A stretch of 64,000 nucleotides of DNA, taken from assembly GCA_041500865.1 (NCBI GenBank), contig JBGQMY010000002.1, positions 14,196 to 78,195 of the forward strand. The letters are read 5' to 3'. The DNA comes from Candidatus Micrarchaeia archaeon. GTDB lineage: Archaea; Micrarchaeota; Micrarchaeia; Anstonellales; J096. Shown piece after piece: positions 48,432 to 58,456 of this stretch. A program made the position numbers and the translations under genes. The number at the start of each line of letters is the position of its first letter. Within the stretch, counting starts at the first letter, position 1. Under the pieces are notes generated by a model that saw only the letters and a program-made list of their open reading frames with translations, was not told where the DNA came from and searched no databases.

Positions 48432-49007
48432 CTATGCCTTTAGCAGATTTTCCACGGTTTTCCTTGTTTTCCAATTCACTTTCTTCAGGTAACTTTCCAG
48501 CACGTCCTTCCTGAGCCTTTTTTTCATCTCCAAAATGACATCCGGATGGATAGGCTCCCTGAAACATACAAAATCTATGACCGTCTTTTCCAAATCCGAG
48601 ACAGGGACTGCAATTCCATGGTATTGGACAATATCATAGCCAAAAAACATTTTCGGCGATATCCTCCTGACTATTACGTTTGTTCCCATGACCTGCCTTG
48701 TCCCTTGCCTGGTTTTTCTAGGGGTTATTATCACGGGGTTTGTCTCCTGCTCCCATATGCCCCTGATGGACAGGGCGTCCTGCAATCCATAGTAAAACGG
48801 GGAGAACGCGAATCCCGAAGCGCTTGAATCATTGAGGAACGTGTATACGCCTCTCCCGATCCTGTTAAGCCCGCCTTTTTTCACCAGATTGGAGAGGATG
48901 AGCGAGACGTATCCCCTGCTGGCCTTTTTTCCAAATGCAGCGACAACGTCCCGTGCCTTGAAGAAGGGCCTTTCCGAAAAATGTTTCTTTATCTCCTTTG
49001 TTTTCAT
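48432..49007 (-). CDS. AbiEi-type antitoxin / wHTH regulator
   Basis: L..LVKKG.L.RIGRGVY and VSDLEKTVIDF; ATGA overlap with the toxin gene. Confidence 0.85.
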   Translation of the reverse strand: MKTKEIKKHFSERPFFKARDVVAAFGKKASRGYVSLILSNLVKKGGLNRIGRGVYTFLNDSSASGFAFSPFYYGLQDALSIRGIWEQETNPVIITPRKTRQGTRQVMGTNVIVRRISPKMFFGYDIVQYHGIAVPVSDLEKTVIDFVCFREPIHPDVILEMKKRLRKDVLESYLKKVNWKTRKTVENLLKA

Positions 49008-49648
49008 ACCGAAAACCTCGACCTTAAGACATCCTTAATCTGTTTTATTGACGGCACTGCGCCGGAATATACGATTGCGCTTAGGCTGTCCTTGTCTATC
49101 GGCTCGATGTCCAGGGCTTTTTTGATGATATCCTTTGCTTCGTCCGGGCTGGCGATTGACGAAAGGAAGTATACGTCGTAAATGTCCCGCATCAGTTTCC
49201 TTGAAATGTAAGCCTCGGCCTTTTCCATCAGCATGGGCCCGGGCATTATGGAGAAGATGTCCATTTTTCCCCCGTCTGCGCGCTCATACGGGATTGGCAT
49301 GATGGATTCTTTTTCAGGCATCCTGAAATTCGCCTCGAACCTCACTTCAGAAACCCCGTCGCTTATCTTTGAGAAGATTGTGTTTCCGGTGTCCTTGTAT
49401 TTCACTATTGAAAGGCCTGCCCTTGCCATCGCGTCCCTGAACCTTTTTTCCGACCATTCCCCCTTTTTGAGGTAGAAGTCAACGTCCTCCGAAAACCTGT
49501 TCGCCCCATGGCACCGCCAGATTGCTGTTCCGCCGTGCATGACCGCAGACGGCGCGATTTCGTATATGGCGTCCACTAGCCTGTCCTGCAGAAGCGCGAT
49601 GTCCCTGTGGGCCTTGCGCTTTAGCCTGTCGTAGAGCGGAATTTCCAT
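49004..49648 (-). CDS. AbiEii-family nucleotidyltransferase toxin
   Basis: HGGTAI, RFSEDVDF, EKAEA...RDIYD. Confidence 0.9.
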   Translation of the reverse strand: MEIPLYDRLKRKAHRDIALLQDRLVDAIYEIAPSAVMHGGTAIWRCHGANRFSEDVDFYLKKGEWSEKRFRDAMARAGLSIVKYKDTGNTIFSKISDGVSEVRFEANFRMPEKESIMPIPYERADGGKMDIFSIMPGPMLMEKAEAYISRKLMRDIYDVYFLSSIASPDEAKDIIKKALDIEPIDKDSLSAIVYSGAVPSIKQIKDVLRSRFSV

Positions 49649-49650
49649 GA

Positions 49651-49703
49651 TTTATATAATAAACGAATATTATATAAAACTATCGTTTTGGTTTATTATA
49701 TAA
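49651..49703. promoter_or_regulatory. Inverted repeats over the promoter of AbiE pair 1
   Basis: TTTATATAATA-N6-TATTATATAAA (49651-49678); TTATATAATAAAC (49652-49664) and GTTTATTATATAA (49691-49703). Confidence 0.65.
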
Positions 49704-49786
49704 TAGGGGCATATTACTGGAAACTGGTTCTCCAGCGCCCTTAAAATAAAAGATTGGGGGAGGGGTTTAATCCCCCGCGGCCTTTT

Positions 49787-49927
49787 TCATTCCGCCTTGC
49801 CAGCTTCCATATCCTTGGGGACACTCGGCACGCCCTTTGCCAGGCCTTCCGCCATCTTCATGACTGTTTCGGCCTTTGCGACTTCGCCAGCTACTTCCAT
49901 TGCCTTCGGAACTCTTTTTCTTGCCAT
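49787..49927 (-). CDS. Putative 46-aa protein (not in ORF track)
   Basis: GGTGAT SD, MARKRVPKAMEVAGEVAKAETVMKMAEGLAKGVPSVPKDMEAGKAE*, followed by a G/C hairpin and T-run. Confidence 0.5.
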   Translation of the reverse strand: MARKRVPKAMEVAGEVAKAETVMKMAEGLAKGVPSVPKDMEAGKAE

Positions 49928-49990
49928 CCAAATCACCAGATAAGCCGTCCGGGGGCCTGGTTAAAAACCAAGGCAGACCCCGTTGCCAAA

Positions 49991-50115
49991 GGGCCTTTCT
50001 TTTGCGAAAGAAAGCCCCTGGGGAAAGAAAGCGTTTTTTGCTGAAGCTTTTTCGCAAAAAGCTTCCTGGGTTCAAAAGAAGGCATTTAGGAAAAAGCCCT
50101 GGGGAAAGAAAGCGC
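49991..50115 (+). repeat. Cluster of palindromic repeat modules
   Basis: AAAGCCC(C)TGGGGAAAGAAAGCG twice, GAAGCTTTTT-CGC-AAAAAGCTTC hairpin, 24-bp module identical to 25697-25720. Confidence 0.78.
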
Positions 50116-50250
50116 TTTGCTCCGCAGCGCAAGCCGTGAAACGACATTTATCCAATAAACCAAACTATGCTTTTCTATCATTTTGGTTGATTGGGTAAGG
50201 GGCTCTTAGCTCTTTTTTGTTCGAATATGAGGGAAACCTTAAAAGTACAT

Positions 50251-50607
50251 TCAGTATTTCATGTCAGAAAGCGCCGCGCTCTCCCATAAGGCAAATTCTT
50301 TTTTCATCGCTTTTACTTCTTTTGTGGATATGGGGAATAATTCTTTCAACCTTGATATGCCCACTACAATCGCTCTCCTCATTTTAGGGCTTGGGTTGTA
50401 TATCCAGGTTATGCCCTTGACGCTTACGGCTATCTTGTTGCTTTCTTCCAGGTAAATCAGGATCGCCTTCAGCATGTTTTGGCTGACTTTTTTTGGAAGC
50501 AGCTTCTTGGTTTGCGCTATTGTCACGACGCTGCCTTTTGCGCCCTTTATCGCTTTCTCAACCAATATGACCGTGTCCAGGTCCGGCGAATGCTGTCTTT
50601 TTTTCAT
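50251..50607 (-). CDS. Small winged-helix protein
   Basis: HSP.LDTVILVE...IL.YLEESNKI...KGITWI; GGTGAT SD. Confidence 0.7.
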   Translation of the reverse strand: MKKRQHSPDLDTVILVEKAIKGAKGSVVTIAQTKKLLPKKVSQNMLKAILIYLEESNKIAVSVKGITWIYNPSPKMRRAIVVGISRLKELFPISTKEVKAMKKEFALWESAALSDMKY

Positions 50608-50626
50608 TTTAATCACCAGTTATCTG

Positions 50627-51520
50627 TTAGGATGGGTACATGCCGCGTATCTTATCCTGTATCATCGACACAAGGCGGTTTGCGTTTTCCTCCTTGAGTA
50701 TGCTTTTGTCTATGAAGATAAGGCGGTCTTCCTCAGTTATCCTTATGTCTGCCTTTGCGCCCAAAAACCCCTGGAGCTTTGCCCAATAGCTGCGCCCCTT
50801 TATCGCATCCAGCTTCTTCCTTAGGCAGGACTCGTTGGAAAGCACACGGCCTAAAACGCCTTTCCGCTCCATCTCCAGCAAATCCACTATGTCCCTGTTG
50901 ACCGGCGCCCACCCCTCATCCGAGCCCCTTGTGCACAGCGCCCTTATTTTTTCCGCGCAAAGCTCCTCCATGGAAAGCACGCGGGCCTGGGCAGAACAAA
51001 GGGCTGGATATAAAGAAGGATATATCCTTGAATACGGATCTTCCGGAACCGGCGCTATCGGCGAAAAAGGCATATGCACAAGATCGAAGCACGGGCTTTC
51101 ATCTATGCAGCTTACCGAAAGCTTTACCGGCCTTTTGAGGTATCCCGCGGAATCCATAAGCTTGAGAATGAATATCCTGCCGCCTTCCCTGTGCTTCTCC
51201 GCTCCGGCCGGCCCTGAGTTGTCTATCGCAAAACCAAGGTCCACGGCAAACCTCTCCAGGCCTTCGTGGAATCCTTTATAGCATTTCCTTGCATTTTCGC
51301 TGCCGAAAAGCGAGAAGTCGAGGTCAAAGCTGAACCTGTATGCCGGCATCGAGAAGCATTTTATTATCGCGGTCCCGCCCTTCAGCGCGAAATCAAACTT
51401 TTTCTGTATCTCCGGCAAGGTTGCGGTGAGGATAAAGTCCACGTATATGTAATCGTCCGGGAAATTCTCTTTCCTTAGCCTGAGGGAAAGCTCGTGCATT
51501 GACTCGAAATCAAGCCTCAT
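50627..51520 (-). CDS. AbiEii-family nucleotidyltransferase toxin
   Basis: LKGGTAI, RFSFDLDF, AEKIRAL, RDIVDL. Confidence 0.9.
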   Translation of the reverse strand: MRLDFESMHELSLRLRKENFPDDYIYVDFILTATLPEIQKKFDFALKGGTAIIKCFSMPAYRFSFDLDFSLFGSENARKCYKGFHEGLERFAVDLGFAIDNSGPAGAEKHREGGRIFILKLMDSAGYLKRPVKLSVSCIDESPCFDLVHMPFSPIAPVPEDPYSRIYPSLYPALCSAQARVLSMEELCAEKIRALCTRGSDEGWAPVNRDIVDLLEMERKGVLGRVLSNESCLRKKLDAIKGRSYWAKLQGFLGAKADIRITEEDRLIFIDKSILKEENANRLVSMIQDKIRGMYPS

Positions 51521-52161
51521 TTGCCCATCCTCATTGCAAAAGGCATCATCTTGATGGCCGCCTTGCTCGGATACCCGGACATAATGGTCTTTAGCAGGCT
51601 CTCCTTGCTTATTTCGTATTTTAATGAACGCTCCATCTCCTCCTTTGACACATTTCCGTTTAGATGCAGGTATATATAGTCCGCAACCGTCCGCTCAATG
51701 CTGCTGACATTATACGGTATTCCGCGGTAATCCTTTCTCATTATCCCCAGCTCCATTTTAGCAGCCGTTTTCACGAAAACGGCCTTGCCCAGCATGTCCG
51801 ATTCGATTGGCTTGCTGTACCTCCTGTTGAAGATGTAGTATTCGGAAACCGGCTGGTTTATTATGCCCAGGAGGTATATCGCGGAGATCCTGCCGAAATA
51901 CCACTGGTCGCCCAATACGGTATTGAGGCACCTGCAAAGTATGGCAAAGCGCCCCTCTTTCAGGTATTTCTTTTCCCTTTCGTCCGGATCCAGCACATAG
52001 TAAACGCCCCTGAATTTCTTTATCGGCTTTACCCAGCCGCTGTTGGTCAGGTTTGACAATAGGTTCATGGATTTTTGCCCAGATGCCTCAAAGATGTCCC
52101 TGGATGTGCAGACCTTTTTTTTGTTTTTTATCAGAATTTCAGTCAATGTCCTGACATTCAT
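51517..52161 (-). CDS. AbiEi-type antitoxin / wHTH regulator
   Basis: L.NL..SGWVKPI..RGVYY, WYFG.ISA, SSIERTVADY; ATGA overlap. Confidence 0.85.
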   Translation of the reverse strand: MNVRTLTEILIKNKKKVCTSRDIFEASGQKSMNLLSNLTNSGWVKPIKKFRGVYYVLDPDEREKKYLKEGRFAILCRCLNTVLGDQWYFGRISAIYLLGIINQPVSEYYIFNRRYSKPIESDMLGKAVFVKTAAKMELGIMRKDYRGIPYNVSSIERTVADYIYLHLNGNVSKEEMERSLKYEISKESLLKTIMSGYPSKAAIKMMPFAMRMGK

Positions 52162-53341: not shown

Positions 53342-53415
53342 AGGGGTCGAAGAAAGTGAATTTGGCAACGACGTGCCAATGGGTTTTTAAACGCATAAAA
53401 TAGAGGGATTATCAT

Positions 53416-54267
53416 ATGAGTATTATCAAAAGTTCGTTTGTAGGACAACTTAAAAATAATACCATTTACAATATTGATGCTCTAGAAGGTCTAAAAAAAG
53501 TTCCATCTGAATCATGCCAAATAATCATAGTAGATCCACCCTATTTTCATGCTATAAAAGAAAGCTGGGATAATCAGTGGAAAAATCTTGATGATTATCT
53601 TATTTGGTGTGATAAATGGCTTAAAGAATGCGTTAGAATTCTGAAACCAAAAGGCACAATGTATATCTATGGATTTAGTGAAACATTAGCATATATTTTT
53701 GTTAGATTAAAAACTAATAAAAAATGGTTGATATGGCATTATACCAATAAGACTGTGCCATCTCTTAATTTTTGGCAAAGAAGCCATGAAAGTATAATAT
53801 GCTGCTGGAAAGATGACAGACCTGATTTCAATCGGGATGATGTTAGAATTCCTTATTCAGAATCATACTTAAAAAATGCTGCTGGAAAAATTCGTGTTGG
53901 TACAAGGGGTAGATATGGAAGTGGAAAAGAAACAATTTATACGGCCCATAAAAATGGCGCACTTCCAAGAGATGTAATTAATATTCCTGCTCTTGCTGGA
54001 GGCGCAGGAATGGTAGAAGGTGTAGAGCATCCGACTCAAAAGCCGCTCGCGTTATGTGACATGTTAATCAAGGCCGCAAAAAACAAAGACAATACTGTTT
54101 TGGTTCCTTTTGTCGGCAGTGGTTCAGAGTGTGTTTCTGCAATAAAAAATAATTGTAATTTTATCGGATTTGAACTAAGTAAAGAGTACTGTAAGATTGC
54201 TGAAAAAAGAATCCTTAATGAAATGAAACAAACAAAAATATTAATTGGAATCAATTTGTTTCTTTAA
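53416..54267 (+). CDS. Beta-class N4C/N6A DNA methyltransferase
   Basis: DPPY precedes HPTQKP and PFVGSG; AT-rich. Confidence 0.93.
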   Translation: MSIIKSSFVGQLKNNTIYNIDALEGLKKVPSESCQIIIVDPPYFHAIKESWDNQWKNLDDYLIWCDKWLKECVRILKPKGTMYIYGFSETLAYIFVRLKTNKKWLIWHYTNKTVPSLNFWQRSHESIICCWKDDRPDFNRDDVRIPYSESYLKNAAGKIRVGTRGRYGSGKETIYTAHKNGALPRDVINIPALAGGAGMVEGVEHPTQKPLALCDMLIKAAKNKDNTVLVPFVGSGSECVSAIKNNCNFIGFELSKEYCKIAEKRILNEMKQTKILIGINLFL

Positions 54268-54939
54268 TTTAAGGAATAGATTATCAGTAAATATTACAAA
54301 ACCATTTGAGAGATATTTTAGACGTTTATCAGAAATAAAACGCTTATATGGTTCTTTAAATTCTCCATTGCGTTTTTTAGGCTCTTCTAGATCTTCTCTA
54401 GTAGGAACGAAATATGATATATTTATCCATTCTCCATCTAATTTGGACTTTGGTTTTCTCTCTTTTCTAACTTCTCTGCTTTGACTTTCCTTTTTTACTT
54501 GACAATTAAAAATCTGTTTTTTGTACGTTATTCTGATATCTGCCCCTTGGTGATCTAATTCTTCAGACATTTGAACTGAGTTAGCACCGAATAAGTCTTC
54601 TGCGACATATGCCGCTTGAATTTGTGTTATTATACTCGCCCAAGTCCGATATATTCTTGCAGGTAACCCTTTGTAGAAACATTTTTTACACATCTGGATC
54701 TTAGTTCTAAATGTTTCAAGGTTTTTACTTTTTTCTTTTAAATATCTACTATAAAATTTCTCAAATGGAAGAAAGTTACGTTCTTGCCAATAAACTTGAT
54801 ATAATAAAGATATTGCTTGAATATTTCTATCTAAATCCATCTCTACGATCTTGATTGAACTAAAGTTTTCTCTATATCTTTTGAGATTAACTGATGCTAA
54901 GAATATCTCAAAATTTTCCCTATCCGATTTTTTGGACAT
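54241..54939 (-). CDS. TaqI-family type II restriction endonuclease
   Basis: FE.FLAS..L..Y...IK.VE.DL, GL.AR.YRT..SI.TQ, ELD.QG.D and Q.KKE recall R.TaqI; convergent with the MTase. Confidence 0.8.
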   Translation of the reverse strand: MSKKSDRENFEIFLASVNLKRYRENFSSIKIVEMDLDRNIQAISLLYQVYWQERNFLPFEKFYSRYLKEKSKNLETFRTKIQMCKKCFYKGLPARIYRTWASIITQIQAAYVAEDLFGANSVQMSEELDHQGADIRITYKKQIFNCQVKKESQSREVRKERKPKSKLDGEWINISYFVPTREDLEEPKKRNGEFKEPYKRFISDKRLKYLSNGFVIFTDNLFLKLKKQIDSN

Positions 54940-55164
54940 AGATCGCTATTTAATATGCAATTTATAAAGATAGTACTATAGAAAGTGAATTAACGTTGTA
55001 TTAAATTGCTGGGCTTCTTTCTTGCTGCGAGATAAACGACGCTTCATTCTTAACAAATTCGAATATATTCTAATGACCAGAATTCTTTTTAGTTAGTTTG
55101 ATAACCATATCTTATCAATACTTATCAACAAGAGTTATAAACAATTAGATATATAAAGTTAAAT

Positions 55165-56445
55165 ATGAAATTTGTAGACCTTTTCGCAGGTCTAGGCGGT
55201 TTTCACCTTGCGCTTCGTGATCTGAGTCATGAATGTGTTTTTGCTTGTGATATTAATAGTAATTTAAGGGAGATCTATTATAAAAATTTTGGAATATACC
55301 CTAAAGGAGATATAAGATTAATTAAAGAAACGGATATTCCTTCTCATGATATACTTTGCGCAGGATTCCCATGTCAACCTTTTTCTAAAGCAGGAAATCA
55401 GAATGGTTTGGATGATAAAGAAAGAGGTAGACTATTCTACGAGATATTACGTATAATTAAACACCATAAACCAAAATATGTAATTCTTGAAAATGTCCCT
55501 CAAATCAGACGTCATAATGACGGCAGAACATGGTCTAAGATGGAGAAGTTATTAAAAAAAGAAGGATATGATGTTCGCTGTAAAGATTTATCGCCCCATC
55601 ATTTTGGAATACCTCAGAGAAGATTCAGAACATATATTGTAGCAAGTAAAAAATCTCTTTGTAATTTTTCATGGCCGGATAAATCATCAAAACTAAAAGA
55701 AAATTCGGTTAAAAAAGTTCTAGAAGTCAAACCGCATAATATTTGGAATATACCATCTAGAGTAAGCAATTGTCTTGAAGTCTGGCAAGAATTTCTGGAT
55801 ATTATCCCCAAAGATACAAAAATACCGCTTCCGGTTTGGGCTATGGAGTTTGGGTCTACATATCCATATAAGAAAATAACCCCATTTGTACTTCCATTAA
55901 AACGGCTGAAATATTATAAAGGATCTTTTGGAATGCCGATTTGTGGATCAAATAAAAGATCTGCATTACTATCACTACCATCTCACGCTAGAAGAGAGAA
56001 CAAAAAATTTCCAGATTGGAAAATAAACATGATTGATAAAAATCGGAAATTTTATAATAAGAATAAGCATAGGCTTAGATCATGGATAAAAAAGATTATG
56101 ACCTTTCCTCCAAGCTATCAAAAACTCGAATGGAATTGTAATGGCGATCCAAGAAATATAATGTCATGTCTTGTCCAATTCAGAGCTTCCGGAGTTAGAG
56201 TAAAAAGACTTGATACGGCTCCAACTCTGGTTGCAATGAATTTATCACAAACACCAATTGTACCTTGGGAAAAAAGATATATGACTTTGAAAGAATGCAA
56301 ACGTCTTCAAAGTATGGATTCGTTAAGTTGCCTCCCATCATCCAGAAAAGAAGCTTATAAGGCGCTTGGTAATGCTGTCAATGTAGATGTTGTTAAATTA
56401 GTTACAGAATCGTTATTATCAAATGAAGATCCTATTACTAGGTGA
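55165..56445 (+). CDS. dcm: C5 cytosine DNA methyltransferase
   Basis: DLFAGLGG, GFPCQPFS, ENV, PQRRFR, LGNAV. Confidence 0.95.
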   Translation: MKFVDLFAGLGGFHLALRDLSHECVFACDINSNLREIYYKNFGIYPKGDIRLIKETDIPSHDILCAGFPCQPFSKAGNQNGLDDKERGRLFYEILRIIKHHKPKYVILENVPQIRRHNDGRTWSKMEKLLKKEGYDVRCKDLSPHHFGIPQRRFRTYIVASKKSLCNFSWPDKSSKLKENSVKKVLEVKPHNIWNIPSRVSNCLEVWQEFLDIIPKDTKIPLPVWAMEFGSTYPYKKITPFVLPLKRLKYYKGSFGMPICGSNKRSALLSLPSHARRENKKFPDWKINMIDKNRKFYNKNKHRLRSWIKKIMTFPPSYQKLEWNCNGDPRNIMSCLVQFRASGVRVKRLDTAPTLVAMNLSQTPIVPWEKRYMTLKECKRLQSMDSLSCLPSSRKEAYKALGNAVNVDVVKLVTESLLSNEDPITR

Positions 56446-56449
56446 TTAA

Positions 56450-58279
56450 ATGAAAGAAATAAAAAAATTAGAAATTGATATTCGGCCACCAGTAAGTGTT
56501 TATGGTACATTCAGACGCCTTACATACCTACCTTGGTATGCTATAGCCGAATTTGTAGACAATGCTACACAGAACTATTTTGATCATAAACCCGAGTTGG
56601 ACAATAATAGTGACGAAAAGAAAAAGAAAAAACTTACAATAAAAATAGTATATGATAGAAAGAATAACAAATTATCTATCTCAGATAATGCTAATGGAAT
56701 GGACTTTGCTGAACTAAAACGTGCAATTAAATTAGATAGTCCGCCAGAAAACCCTTCTGGTAGATGTGAATTTGGAATGGGTCTAAAGACCGCTGCGTGC
56801 TGGTTTTCACGGAAATGGAAAATAGAAACTAAAAGACTAGGTGAAACAGAGAAATATTCACTTGTTGTAGATGTTAAAGATATGTCACACCAAGTCGAAG
56901 AAAAATTATCAGTTGATGCCATAAAGACCAAACCTAAAGAACATTATACTATTATAACACTTGAAGAAATTTACAAGCCTCTATCTTCAAGGACTATCGG
57001 AAGAATTAAACTTCAATTAGCAAGTATGTATCGTGTAGATCTTAATTCCAAAGATATTGAAATTCTATGGAATGGCGTTCGTTTAAAATCTCCCAAACAG
57101 CACGTTCTTAAAGAATCTCAGATGGATGGACGCAAAACAATATGGAAAAAAGAGATTTCATTCGAAGTTCCTTGGAAAATAGAAAATCAGATGTTATCTG
57201 TTAATGGTTGGGTAGGGATACGGGACCCCGGAAGTCAAAGGGATGCTGGATTTGTATTATTTAGACGTGGTAGAGTTATAGTAGGCGGTCCAGAGAGAGG
57301 ATATAAACCAAAGGAGATTTTTGGACAAGGCAATACATTCAGATCACAAAGACTTATTGGCGAATTAAGTATGGACAATTGGCCAGTAACTCAAGCTAAA
57401 GATGCTTTTGACTGGACAGGAGAACTTGAAGAGGCATTCATAGAAATATTAAAGAATGAAGCAAAGGATTATATGAATAAAGCTGAAAAATATAGAAGTG
57501 ACCAGAAGACTACAAAACCAGAAATACAGCAGGTTGCAAATGAAACAAAAGAGTCATCTAAAGAAGAAGAGATAGAGGCATATGAAGAAAAACTAAATGA
57601 GATTACAAAAAAATTATCTGAAGATCGGGACGAACTAGAAACTGTCAAACAGAATGAGGAGACAAATAGACATAGGGAATATGCCTTTATTATAAAAGAT
57701 AGATTAAATAATTTTCAGACTACATTTAATGAACTGAAGCAATTAATAAAAGAGAGTATAGAAAAAAACGTGGGAAAAGAAGAAAAGATTAAAGAAAAGA
57801 TAAAGAAAAATAAATGGCTTCTGGGTCTTGAATGCGATATAGACGCAAAAAATCAAGATATAGATAATCAGGGAGAGATAGATCTGCATATTAAAACGAA
57901 GTATGATGAAGATAAAATTTTTGAAATAAAAAGCCCTAATATAAAACCATTTATAGGAAAACGTATGAATTCGAAGACAAAGACGCGCTTAATTATGTCA
58001 GATGAACTTGCTGATGGACTGAGCGAACTTATATTCTATCTAGAAAGAACAAATTTATACGCCGAGCTAAAATTACAAGGAGGCTATGGTATTTCAAAAG
58101 CCTCGGGTTTTATTCTTATAGGATATAATCTTACAGATGACGAAAAAACAATGATTAATTATCTAAATTTCCATTTGAGTCCACATATACGTATTATTAC
58201 ATACAATGACCTTGAAAATAATATTGAGCGTGAACTTGAGACTGTTAAAAAGTTTGCAAAGAGCAGCAAAGAAAGATAG
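56450..58279 (+). CDS. MORC/GHKL ATPase fused to a Shedu (SduA/DUF4263)-like nuclease
   Basis: AEFVDNA, DNANGM, FGMGLK, LFRRGRV; coiled coil; C-terminal E...KWLLG...IDL...FEIKSP...GFILIG...IITYNDL. Confidence 0.75.
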   Translation: MKEIKKLEIDIRPPVSVYGTFRRLTYLPWYAIAEFVDNATQNYFDHKPELDNNSDEKKKKKLTIKIVYDRKNNKLSISDNANGMDFAELKRAIKLDSPPENPSGRCEFGMGLKTAACWFSRKWKIETKRLGETEKYSLVVDVKDMSHQVEEKLSVDAIKTKPKEHYTIITLEEIYKPLSSRTIGRIKLQLASMYRVDLNSKDIEILWNGVRLKSPKQHVLKESQMDGRKTIWKKEISFEVPWKIENQMLSVNGWVGIRDPGSQRDAGFVLFRRGRVIVGGPERGYKPKEIFGQGNTFRSQRLIGELSMDNWPVTQAKDAFDWTGELEEAFIEILKNEAKDYMNKAEKYRSDQKTTKPEIQQVANETKESSKEEEIEAYEEKLNEITKKLSEDRDELETVKQNEETNRHREYAFIIKDRLNNFQTTFNELKQLIKESIEKNVGKEEKIKEKIKKNKWLLGLECDIDAKNQDIDNQGEIDLHIKTKYDEDKIFEIKSPNIKPFIGKRMNSKTKTRLIMSDELADGLSELIFYLERTNLYAELKLQGGYGISKASGFILIGYNLTDDEKTMINYLNFHLSPHIRIITYNDLENNIERELETVKKFAKSSKER

Positions 58280-58403
58280 ACGGTGGCATTTTGTTTATAA
58301 AAAGTGATTAATATTGTATATTTGCTATTAAATTCTAAATTATCCTTCTGACAGCCGTTCATGATATTTTCTGATATCGCACGATTGAAAAGTCTCCTGC
58401 GCC

Positions 58404-58456
58404 TGTTAACACCATCTTAACAAGATTTATAAATGTTTGTTAACAACATCTTAACA
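58404..58456 (+). promoter_or_regulatory. TATA box flanked by two 19-bp operators
   Basis: TGTTAACACCATCTTAACA (58404-58422), TTTATAAA (58426-58433), TGTTAACAACATCTTAACA (58438-58456). Confidence 0.8.

Follow-up and report, generated by a model that had tools for sequence, protein, structure and literature searches.

What kind of protein is encoded by a gene that begins four nucleotides (nt) after a C5-cytosine DNA methyltransferase gene, dcm, in a micrarchaeal genome, and do the two genes act together? The pair lies in a 64,000-nt window, the whole stretch of DNA that was analyzed, from a Candidatus Micrarchaeia archaeon, a small organism of sediment (GenBank assembly GCA_041500865.1, contig JBGQMY010000002.1, positions 14,196 to 78,195 of the forward strand). 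An earlier note, made from the sequence of the window, read the pair as a compact methylation-gated restriction system in which the second gene joins a MORC ATPase to a Shedu nuclease. Our analysis indicates that this gene, which specifies 609 amino acids (aa), is very probably a natural chimera of a MORC half and a stand-alone Shedu half, and that dcm looks like a leftover of the MORC operon, a passenger rather than a partner. The gene layout of the note is borne out: the dcm stop codon is followed by TTAA and then by the ATG of the 609-aa open reading frame at 56450-58279, and all the motifs quoted there are present in the sequence. The features, in window coordinates, are as follows.

55165..56445, plus strand: dcm, C5-cytosine DNA methyltransferase, 426 aa (PF00145, E 1e-69; motifs FxGxGG, PCQ with C70, ENV and QxRxR intact)
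56450..57553, plus strand: MORC half of the fusion, aa 1-368, GHKL ATPase and S5 domains (HATPase_c_3 match, homolog alignment)
57554..57562, plus strand: in-frame junction, aa 369-371 (per-residue profile and local alignment starts)
57563..57769, plus strand: coiled-coil linker from the Shedu donor, aa 372-440 (30% mean identity to 12 donors; long helices in a donor model)
57770..58279, plus strand: Shedu (SduA_C/DUF4263) PD-(D/E)xK nuclease, aa 441-609 (SduA_C match and motifs I-IV)
53350..58390, unstranded: low-GC island of ~5 kb and ~32% GC, holding dcm, the fusion and a separate methylase/TaqI-like endonuclease pair

The two halves of the protein and their junction

A Pfam scan of the whole protein recovered HATPase_c_3 at aa 28-154 (E 1.9e-15). 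The GHKL motifs AEFVDNA (aa 33), DNANGM (aa 79) and FGMGLK (aa 108) are in place, the catalytic residues E34, N38, D79 and G109/G111/K113 are kept, and K317 of the S5 domain is also present. The segment GFVLFRRGRVI at aa 267-277 is the MORC-specific S5 motif of the class GhXhhpXXRhl, and it recurs in all 119 non-self homologs considered (the best 119 of 1,094 matches in the whole-protein search). Iyer et al. 2008 (PMC2292703) define paraMORC3 as being without this motif. On these features, and in agreement with the MORC call of the earlier note, aa 1-368 can be classified as a true MORC GHKL and S5 module and not as a paraMORC. This half is up to 68% identical to operon-borne MORC ATPases. The homologs are mostly 496-552 aa long (~520 aa in the parents), align well with the fusion only over about aa 1-368, and continue into a different C-terminal domain of their own, whose NxxHP motif is found in 114 of the 119 and is missing from the fusion. 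Their best alignments span 57-69% of the fusion protein, with a sole exception at 86% that also has a MORC-type C-terminus. A second clade of DPANN MORC-like ATPases (L011, L026, L048 and L054; 530-600 aa, 26-32% identical to the fusion) showed no adjoining Z1 gene in the available DNA, and its partners vary.

The C-terminal half yields its identity less readily. SduA_C (PF14082) was detected at 33.5 bits, against a cut-off of 27, only if the last 179 aa (aa 431-609) were scanned alone; the PADLOC SduA model matched at E 5e-6, and scans of the whole 609-aa protein gave no SduA match in either Pfam or PADLOC. Motifs KEEKIK (aa 443, position 57776), KWLLG (455), EIDL (476) and FEIKSP (491) are in place, as are LADGLSELIFY (520), GFILIG (553) and IITYNDL (582) further on. 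Numbering the motifs after Gu et al. and mapping them by hand onto alignments, we assign the catalytic residues to E444 (motif I), D478 (motif II) and E492-x-K494 (motif III), which are invariant or nearly so in 47 relatives. Motif IV is E526 with Y530, where B. cereus Shedu has Q (Q295). This ExxxY, which the earlier note took for a departure from the usual QxxxY, is not peculiar to this protein, being found in 13 of 13 close relatives, and in the wider family of 47 E occurs in 19 members and Q in 28, which makes it a subfamily variant.

A search with aa 365-609 retrieved those 13 proteins, of 210-360 aa and 45-57% identity, none of them a fusion; 12 are full-length, each with its own N-terminus of ~100 aa. 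Likewise, a profile search of 1.84 billion representatives gave 26 clusters at E<=1e-30, all of them of 365 aa or less. SduA_C is matched at E<=0.01 in 33 of the 47 relatives, and the family profile retrieves E. coli SduA (8PS4, E 1.6e-9) and B. cereus SduA (8TI8, E 2.6e-7) from the PDB, whereas a phmmer search of the PDB with the whole fusion protein gave no match at E<=1. The ESM Atlas, used as a lead only, also placed SduA_C clusters on top (scores 0.84-0.86). A model of the donor-family protein P0128, 52% identical over the common region, has a predicted local distance difference test score (pLDDT) of 84; its top nine Foldseek matches are all Shedu chains, and a VIA comparison gives Z 12.4-13.0 to Shedu structures. 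A single-sequence fold of the C-terminal 185 aa of the fusion itself reached a pLDDT of 39.8 and was not used. The donor N-terminal domain is modeled close to Pur-alpha/PC4 folds with middling scores that cover the whole small domain (Z 7.0 over 74 residues, and 5.9), and this PC4/Whirly-like domain fits type 1A Shedu as defined by Gu et al. (10.1101/2023.08.10.552793). The sequence matches and the donor model thus agree with the nuclease call of the earlier note and assign the C-terminal half to the Shedu nucleases, specifically to an archaeal type 1A subfamily. This compact subfamily (L001-L008, L010; P0121-P0163) has ~330 aa made up of a PC4-like domain, a long coiled coil and an ExxxY nuclease; its genes are often inserted inside restriction-modification (R-M) operons, for instance between hsdM and hsdS in L003 and L005, and Pfam fails to detect SduA_C in several of its members.

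Up to aa 368 the protein resembles its MORC relatives and from aa 372 its Shedu relatives, the change falling at ~57554-57562, and 10 of 12 local alignments to Shedu relatives start at aa 372-373; the joint, which is in frame, thus directly follows the S5 domain and directly precedes the Shedu linker. The joint is real and not a misassembly, because a contig from another study (run X2) crosses it unchanged, spanning 57415-57678 with 0 differences and with 139 and 116 letters flanking the joint; run X1 also spans it. That the gene arose by the assembler joining two low-GC islands is hence scarcely credible. Such an artifact could be suspected in a metagenome-assembled genome with a depth of ~7-9 in the likely source run and a gene known as a singleton, but the X2 contig refutes it, provided that X2 and X1 come from separate material. 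No second copy of the fusion was recovered from 5.8 billion clustered proteins or from 1,316 genome searches, repeats included, which took in 401 genomes of the same phylum, 401, 215 and 61 of three other DPANN-type phyla, and 176 of the same order; the profile search was clustered at 50%, at which a fusion could hide under a MORC representative. Apart from the window's own gene, the genome-search matches each covered one half only, the widest extending over aa 7-500 at 26% identity in a frame of ~490 aa that is without a Shedu match.

The parental operon and the origin of the chimera

The dcm protein is 54-69% identical to eight operon-encoded dcm proteins, with invariant catalytic motifs. 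Its family lies directly upstream of MORC in 12 of 14 distinct MORC-donor loci (L059 counted once together with L021), and, of the 11 whose sequence reaches far enough, 10 have Z1 as the next gene after MORC; DUF4420 was seen in seven of the 14 and Vsr in four. The dcm and MORC segments of the window align to one of these loci, L015, as a single block (55159-57487, 2.3 kb, 68% nt identity), and L015 has the full dcm-MORC-Z1-DUF4420-Vsr operon. In trees of nine rows each, built without L017, L020, L024, L025, L031 and L066, the window is sister to L015 for both dcm (100/100) and MORC (99/98). By contrast, neither this dcm family nor this MORC clade is represented in any of nine Shedu-donor loci; the dcm in L006 is unrelated (29%) and heads its own GHKL/response-regulator cluster, and in eight Shedu-donor genomes that were checked the match to the fusion is confined to the Shedu half. 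Four of the nine Shedu-donor loci are within or next to R-M genes of type I, IIG or III, the usual company in defense islands. Because dcm and the MORC half both group with L015, and the Shedu-donor loci are devoid of this dcm family, the sequence relationships indicate that dcm was inherited together with the ATPase from a dcm-MORC-Z1-DUF4420(-Vsr) operon. As an operon remnant its adjacency to the fusion needs no functional partnership.

The locus has no Z1, DUF4420 or Vsr gene, and family searches and tblastn did not find them in the 1.04 Mb, 92% complete host genome either, tblastn being the better test for DUF4420, for which the family search matched in no control genome. Their loss is best explained by the event that made the fusion. 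The absence of Z1 and DUF4420 asserted in the earlier note thus holds; that of AIPR is weakly tested, the family search that did not find it in the genome having matched no control genome either. Nor does AIPR appear to be a usual partner of this kind of MORC, as had been supposed: no AIPR gene follows DUF4420 in the closest operon loci whose next gene was scanned or annotated, and what these operons carry is Z1, DUF4420 and often Vsr.

A possible setting for the fusion is offered by a locus from the same order, L026, in which a distant MORC overlaps the start of a stand-alone Shedu gene. The cargo in L026 (692-8438; a DpnII-like R-M set, the MORC and the Shedu) and that in L015 (3122-11271; dcm-MORC-Z1-DUF4420-Vsr) are flanked by the same genes, read from their sequences as a four-helix-bundle gene (a small helical protein) and a tyrosine-integrase-like gene, at 68-74% nt identity. 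Because of these common flanks, MORC operons and Shedu genes appear to circulate in one cargo site. The adjacency in L026 is the kind of arrangement that one in-frame deletion or recombination could fuse. We propose that such a deletion or recombination in a defense cargo region joined MORC to Shedu, a single step that would have removed the C-terminal domain of MORC, Z1, DUF4420 and Vsr together with the PC4/Whirly-like sensor of Shedu, which is missing from the fusion protein, and would have made of a type 1A Shedu one that is regulated by an ATPase in the manner of type 1D. As the MORC and Shedu halves have equal GC content at third codon positions (GC3; 0.24 and 0.25), the two were probably spliced within a low-GC donor, or between such donors, before the arrival of the island.

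Predicted function and competing explanations

Fusions of GHKL and DUF4263 domains have been published as type 1D Shedu and as paraMORC3 (PMC12137116; 10.1101/2023.08.10.552793), type 1D being the class in which an enzymatic N-terminal domain is joined to DUF4263 (Gu et al., 10.1101/2023.08.10.552793). With HATPase_c_3 and a middle domain joined to DUF4263, the fusion protein belongs by architecture to type 1D and, having the GhXhhpXXRhl motif, not to the paraMORC3 family. It resembles VcSduA and paraMORC3 in combining a GHKL ATPase, a middle (S5-like) domain and a DUF4263 nuclease in one chain with catalytic residues present, but differs from them in that its ATPase is a true MORC, bears the S5 signature and is 68% identical to MORCs that stand unfused in operons, in that its nuclease is from the archaeal type 1A subfamily, and in that it is a singleton whose joint can still be seen and which has a dcm left over beside it. 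That it is merely an ordinary member of the old paraMORC3/VcSduA family is a highly improbable reading: the domain order and size are the same (~440 aa before the nuclease, versus 437-497 aa in the 19 HATPase_c_3-DUF4263 cases, all bacterial, of Table S3 in Gu et al., 10.1101/2023.08.10.552793), but the motif that separates MORCs from paraMORCs (Iyer et al., PMC2292703) is present, unfused parents match the two halves at 45-68% identity, and there is no full-length relative among the matches listed.

Compared with the dcm-MORC-Z1-DUF4420-Vsr operon, the third type of Iyer et al. 2008 (PMC2292703) and related to Mza, the locus keeps orthologous dcm and MORC aa 1-368 in the same order and tight spacing, whereas the MORC C-terminal domain, Z1, DUF4420 and Vsr are gone. 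With type 1A Shedu (B. cereus SduA, 8TI8/8TI9) and E. coli SduA (8PS4) it has in common the nuclease fold, motifs I-III and the helical linker, and the donors also have a PC4/Pur-alpha-like N-terminus; here, however, an ATPase replaces the sensor and motif IV has E and not Q. Type II R-M pairs, too, place a methylase beside a nuclease, but no PADLOC REase_II model matches the 609-aa protein, which gives no sign of sequence-specific cutting. PADLOC has no system model that covers the dcm and fusion pair, and among openly accessible papers we found none on dcm-linked or MORC-derived Shedu. The GHKL-Shedu architecture is thus already known; what is new is that it arose independently in an archaeon, with a true MORC as its source, and that the two parents and the joint can still be seen.

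Characterized Shedu proteins suggest how such a protein might work. B. cereus Shedu forms a tetramer that its N-terminal and linker domains keep inactive, and it becomes toxic once both are removed (Gu et al., 10.1101/2023.08.10.552793); VcSduA acts alone and needs both ATPase and nuclease (PMC12137116); E. coli SduA senses DNA ends (Loeff et al. preprint). Given that the linker is kept and the sensor alone is swapped, and given the precedent of VcSduA, an ATP-dependent MORC clamp acting without dcm is the simplest working model. The nuclease domains would oligomerize and be held off by the retained coiled-coil linker, and the MORC module, replacing the lost sensor, would dimerize on ATP, clamp DNA and license nicking or cutting of invading DNA by its structure and not its sequence. 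The dcm enzyme might still methylate its own site, and would not be needed for self-protection. An ATP-regulated Shedu is plausible by likeness to VcSduA, and we regard the predicted activity of the fusion as a dcm-independent, single-gene, type 1D-like Shedu as about evenly balanced between right and wrong. Function is supported indirectly: neither half has lost any of its catalytic residues, though the two are 32-45% diverged from their nearest parents; run X4 holds pieces of dcm, the MORC half and the Shedu half at 90-96% identity, in which the only indel listed is an in-frame deletion of 6 nt; and 26 of 35 dcm codons changed between X4 and the window are synonymous.

Several observations weigh against this account of origin and function. 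The two exact parents do not occur together in any locus (0 of 14 on the MORC-donor side, 0 of nine on the Shedu-donor side); the fusion is apparently unique in the sequences searched and, as a singleton, gives no support for conservation as a unit; and the parental C-terminal domain of ~150 aa has been lost from the MORC. The linker has a mean identity to the donors of 30%, compared with the 43% usual among them, although one donor is similar at 31% (12 donors, fragment P0133 left out). X4 has no bridge over the joint and may represent the fusion or an unfused precursor, and the synonymous count is confined to dcm and to 39 of 119 differences. Some of these points would suit a fusion of the same origin that is a neutral in-frame deletion scar, silent, misfolded or unregulated, beside an orphan methylase, a possibility that we consider somewhat unlikely: the rarity of the gene and the truncated MORC are to be expected of it, a third of deletions are in frame by chance, and the terminal branch of the MORC is longer than that of its sister (0.44 versus 0.25). 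A scar, however, would not be expected to have its joint between domains with the whole Shedu linker kept, to be free of catalytic decay after such divergence, to have equal GC3 in both halves, or to occur alongside a strain diverged by ~5% that has both halves with no frameshift listed.

The methylation-gated system of the earlier note, in which the MORC module would read the dcm mark and license the Shedu nuclease on unmethylated DNA only, is not supported and appears quite unlikely. In its favor, dcm is intact, only 4 nt from the fusion, and changed mostly synonymously in the X4 variant; prokaryotic MORCs have been placed in R-M systems with cytosine methylases (Iyer et al., PMC2292703); methylase-fused Shedus have been proposed as equivalents of type II R-M (Gu et al., 10.1101/2023.08.10.552793); and, as noted, nearly half of the Shedu donors neighbor R-M genes. 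Yet inheritance fully accounts for the adjacency of dcm, the nuclease and helicase of the parental operon, which would be the likelier readers of the site, are gone, domain scans found no methyl-reader domain in the fusion, and characterized Shedus act as single genes that sense DNA ends or are sensor-gated. The synteny on which such a system would rest also failed to appear, in that no homologous fusion was found in the searches and the Shedu donors are without this dcm family, its link being to the MORC half by operon descent. A predicted complex of dcm with MORC (aa 1-365) scored 0.00, gave no verdict and was not used as evidence.

The island, its neighbors and the meaning of the chimera

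GC3 of the island genes is 0.23-0.25, versus 0.64 in cdc48. The island genes have no match in two congeners searched, though the flank from 58390 onward is common to them, and dcm of this family occurs in none of 18 family members searched. Relatives of neither the MORC half nor the Shedu half were seen in viral contigs. The repeat search gave neither direct repeats at the two edges of the island nor, among the repeats listed, a pair located at the junction. Within the same island, 53416-54939 holds a convergent N4/N6 methylase (283 aa) and a TaqI-family endonuclease (232 aa) with overlapping ends, which make up an ordinary type II R-M pair; in the genome TCGA occurs less often than expected, at 0.60 of expectation. 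As run X4 covers dcm and the fusion but is without this R-M pair, the two cassettes may travel apart. Between them, at ~54980-55041, lies a degenerate match (77% over 62-65 nt) to the terminal part of a multi-copy element. Contigs C3, C4, C11, C16, C30 and C34 have this element at their ends, and by its hairpin and reading frame it looks like IS200. Upstream of the island, 48432-52161 holds two tandem AbiE-type toxin-antitoxin pairs. Near the right edge a 19-nt direct repeat (58404-58456; 95% identical, 34 nt apart), just 5' of a winged-helix gene at 58456, is possibly an operator.

Genome-wide, GATC is strongly under-represented (381 seen versus 2,763 expected, 0.14) and CTAG reaches 0.39, pointing to past or present restriction at those sites; these being the strongest cases, palindrome under-representation gave no pointer to the dcm site. 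A sigma-70 promoter scan, a model unsuited to archaea, gave 16 sites versus 17 expected, and none of the runs listed as holding the locus is an RNA run.

The diversity of Shedu is thought to come from sensor swaps on one nuclease core, and such swaps are usually old, with the parents lost. Here both parents can be named and the joint placed within four codons. Were the MORC still coupled to a cytosine mark and gating the Shedu, which is quite unlikely, one recombination would have made a methylation-licensed, ATP-driven Shedu from two known parent families, and it would follow that in the MORC systems of prokaryotes self is told from non-self by the MORC ATPase itself. The nuclease is overlooked when Pfam and PADLOC scan the whole protein, so that chimeras of this type are probably under-counted. 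As a singleton of predicted activity, the fusion is evidence for a one-off swap of defense domains and not for a new widespread system. The parent Shedu, the parent MORC operon and the chimera together provide a three-way comparison, which bears on whether a sensor swap gives a working defense at once and on the role of the MORC ATPase.

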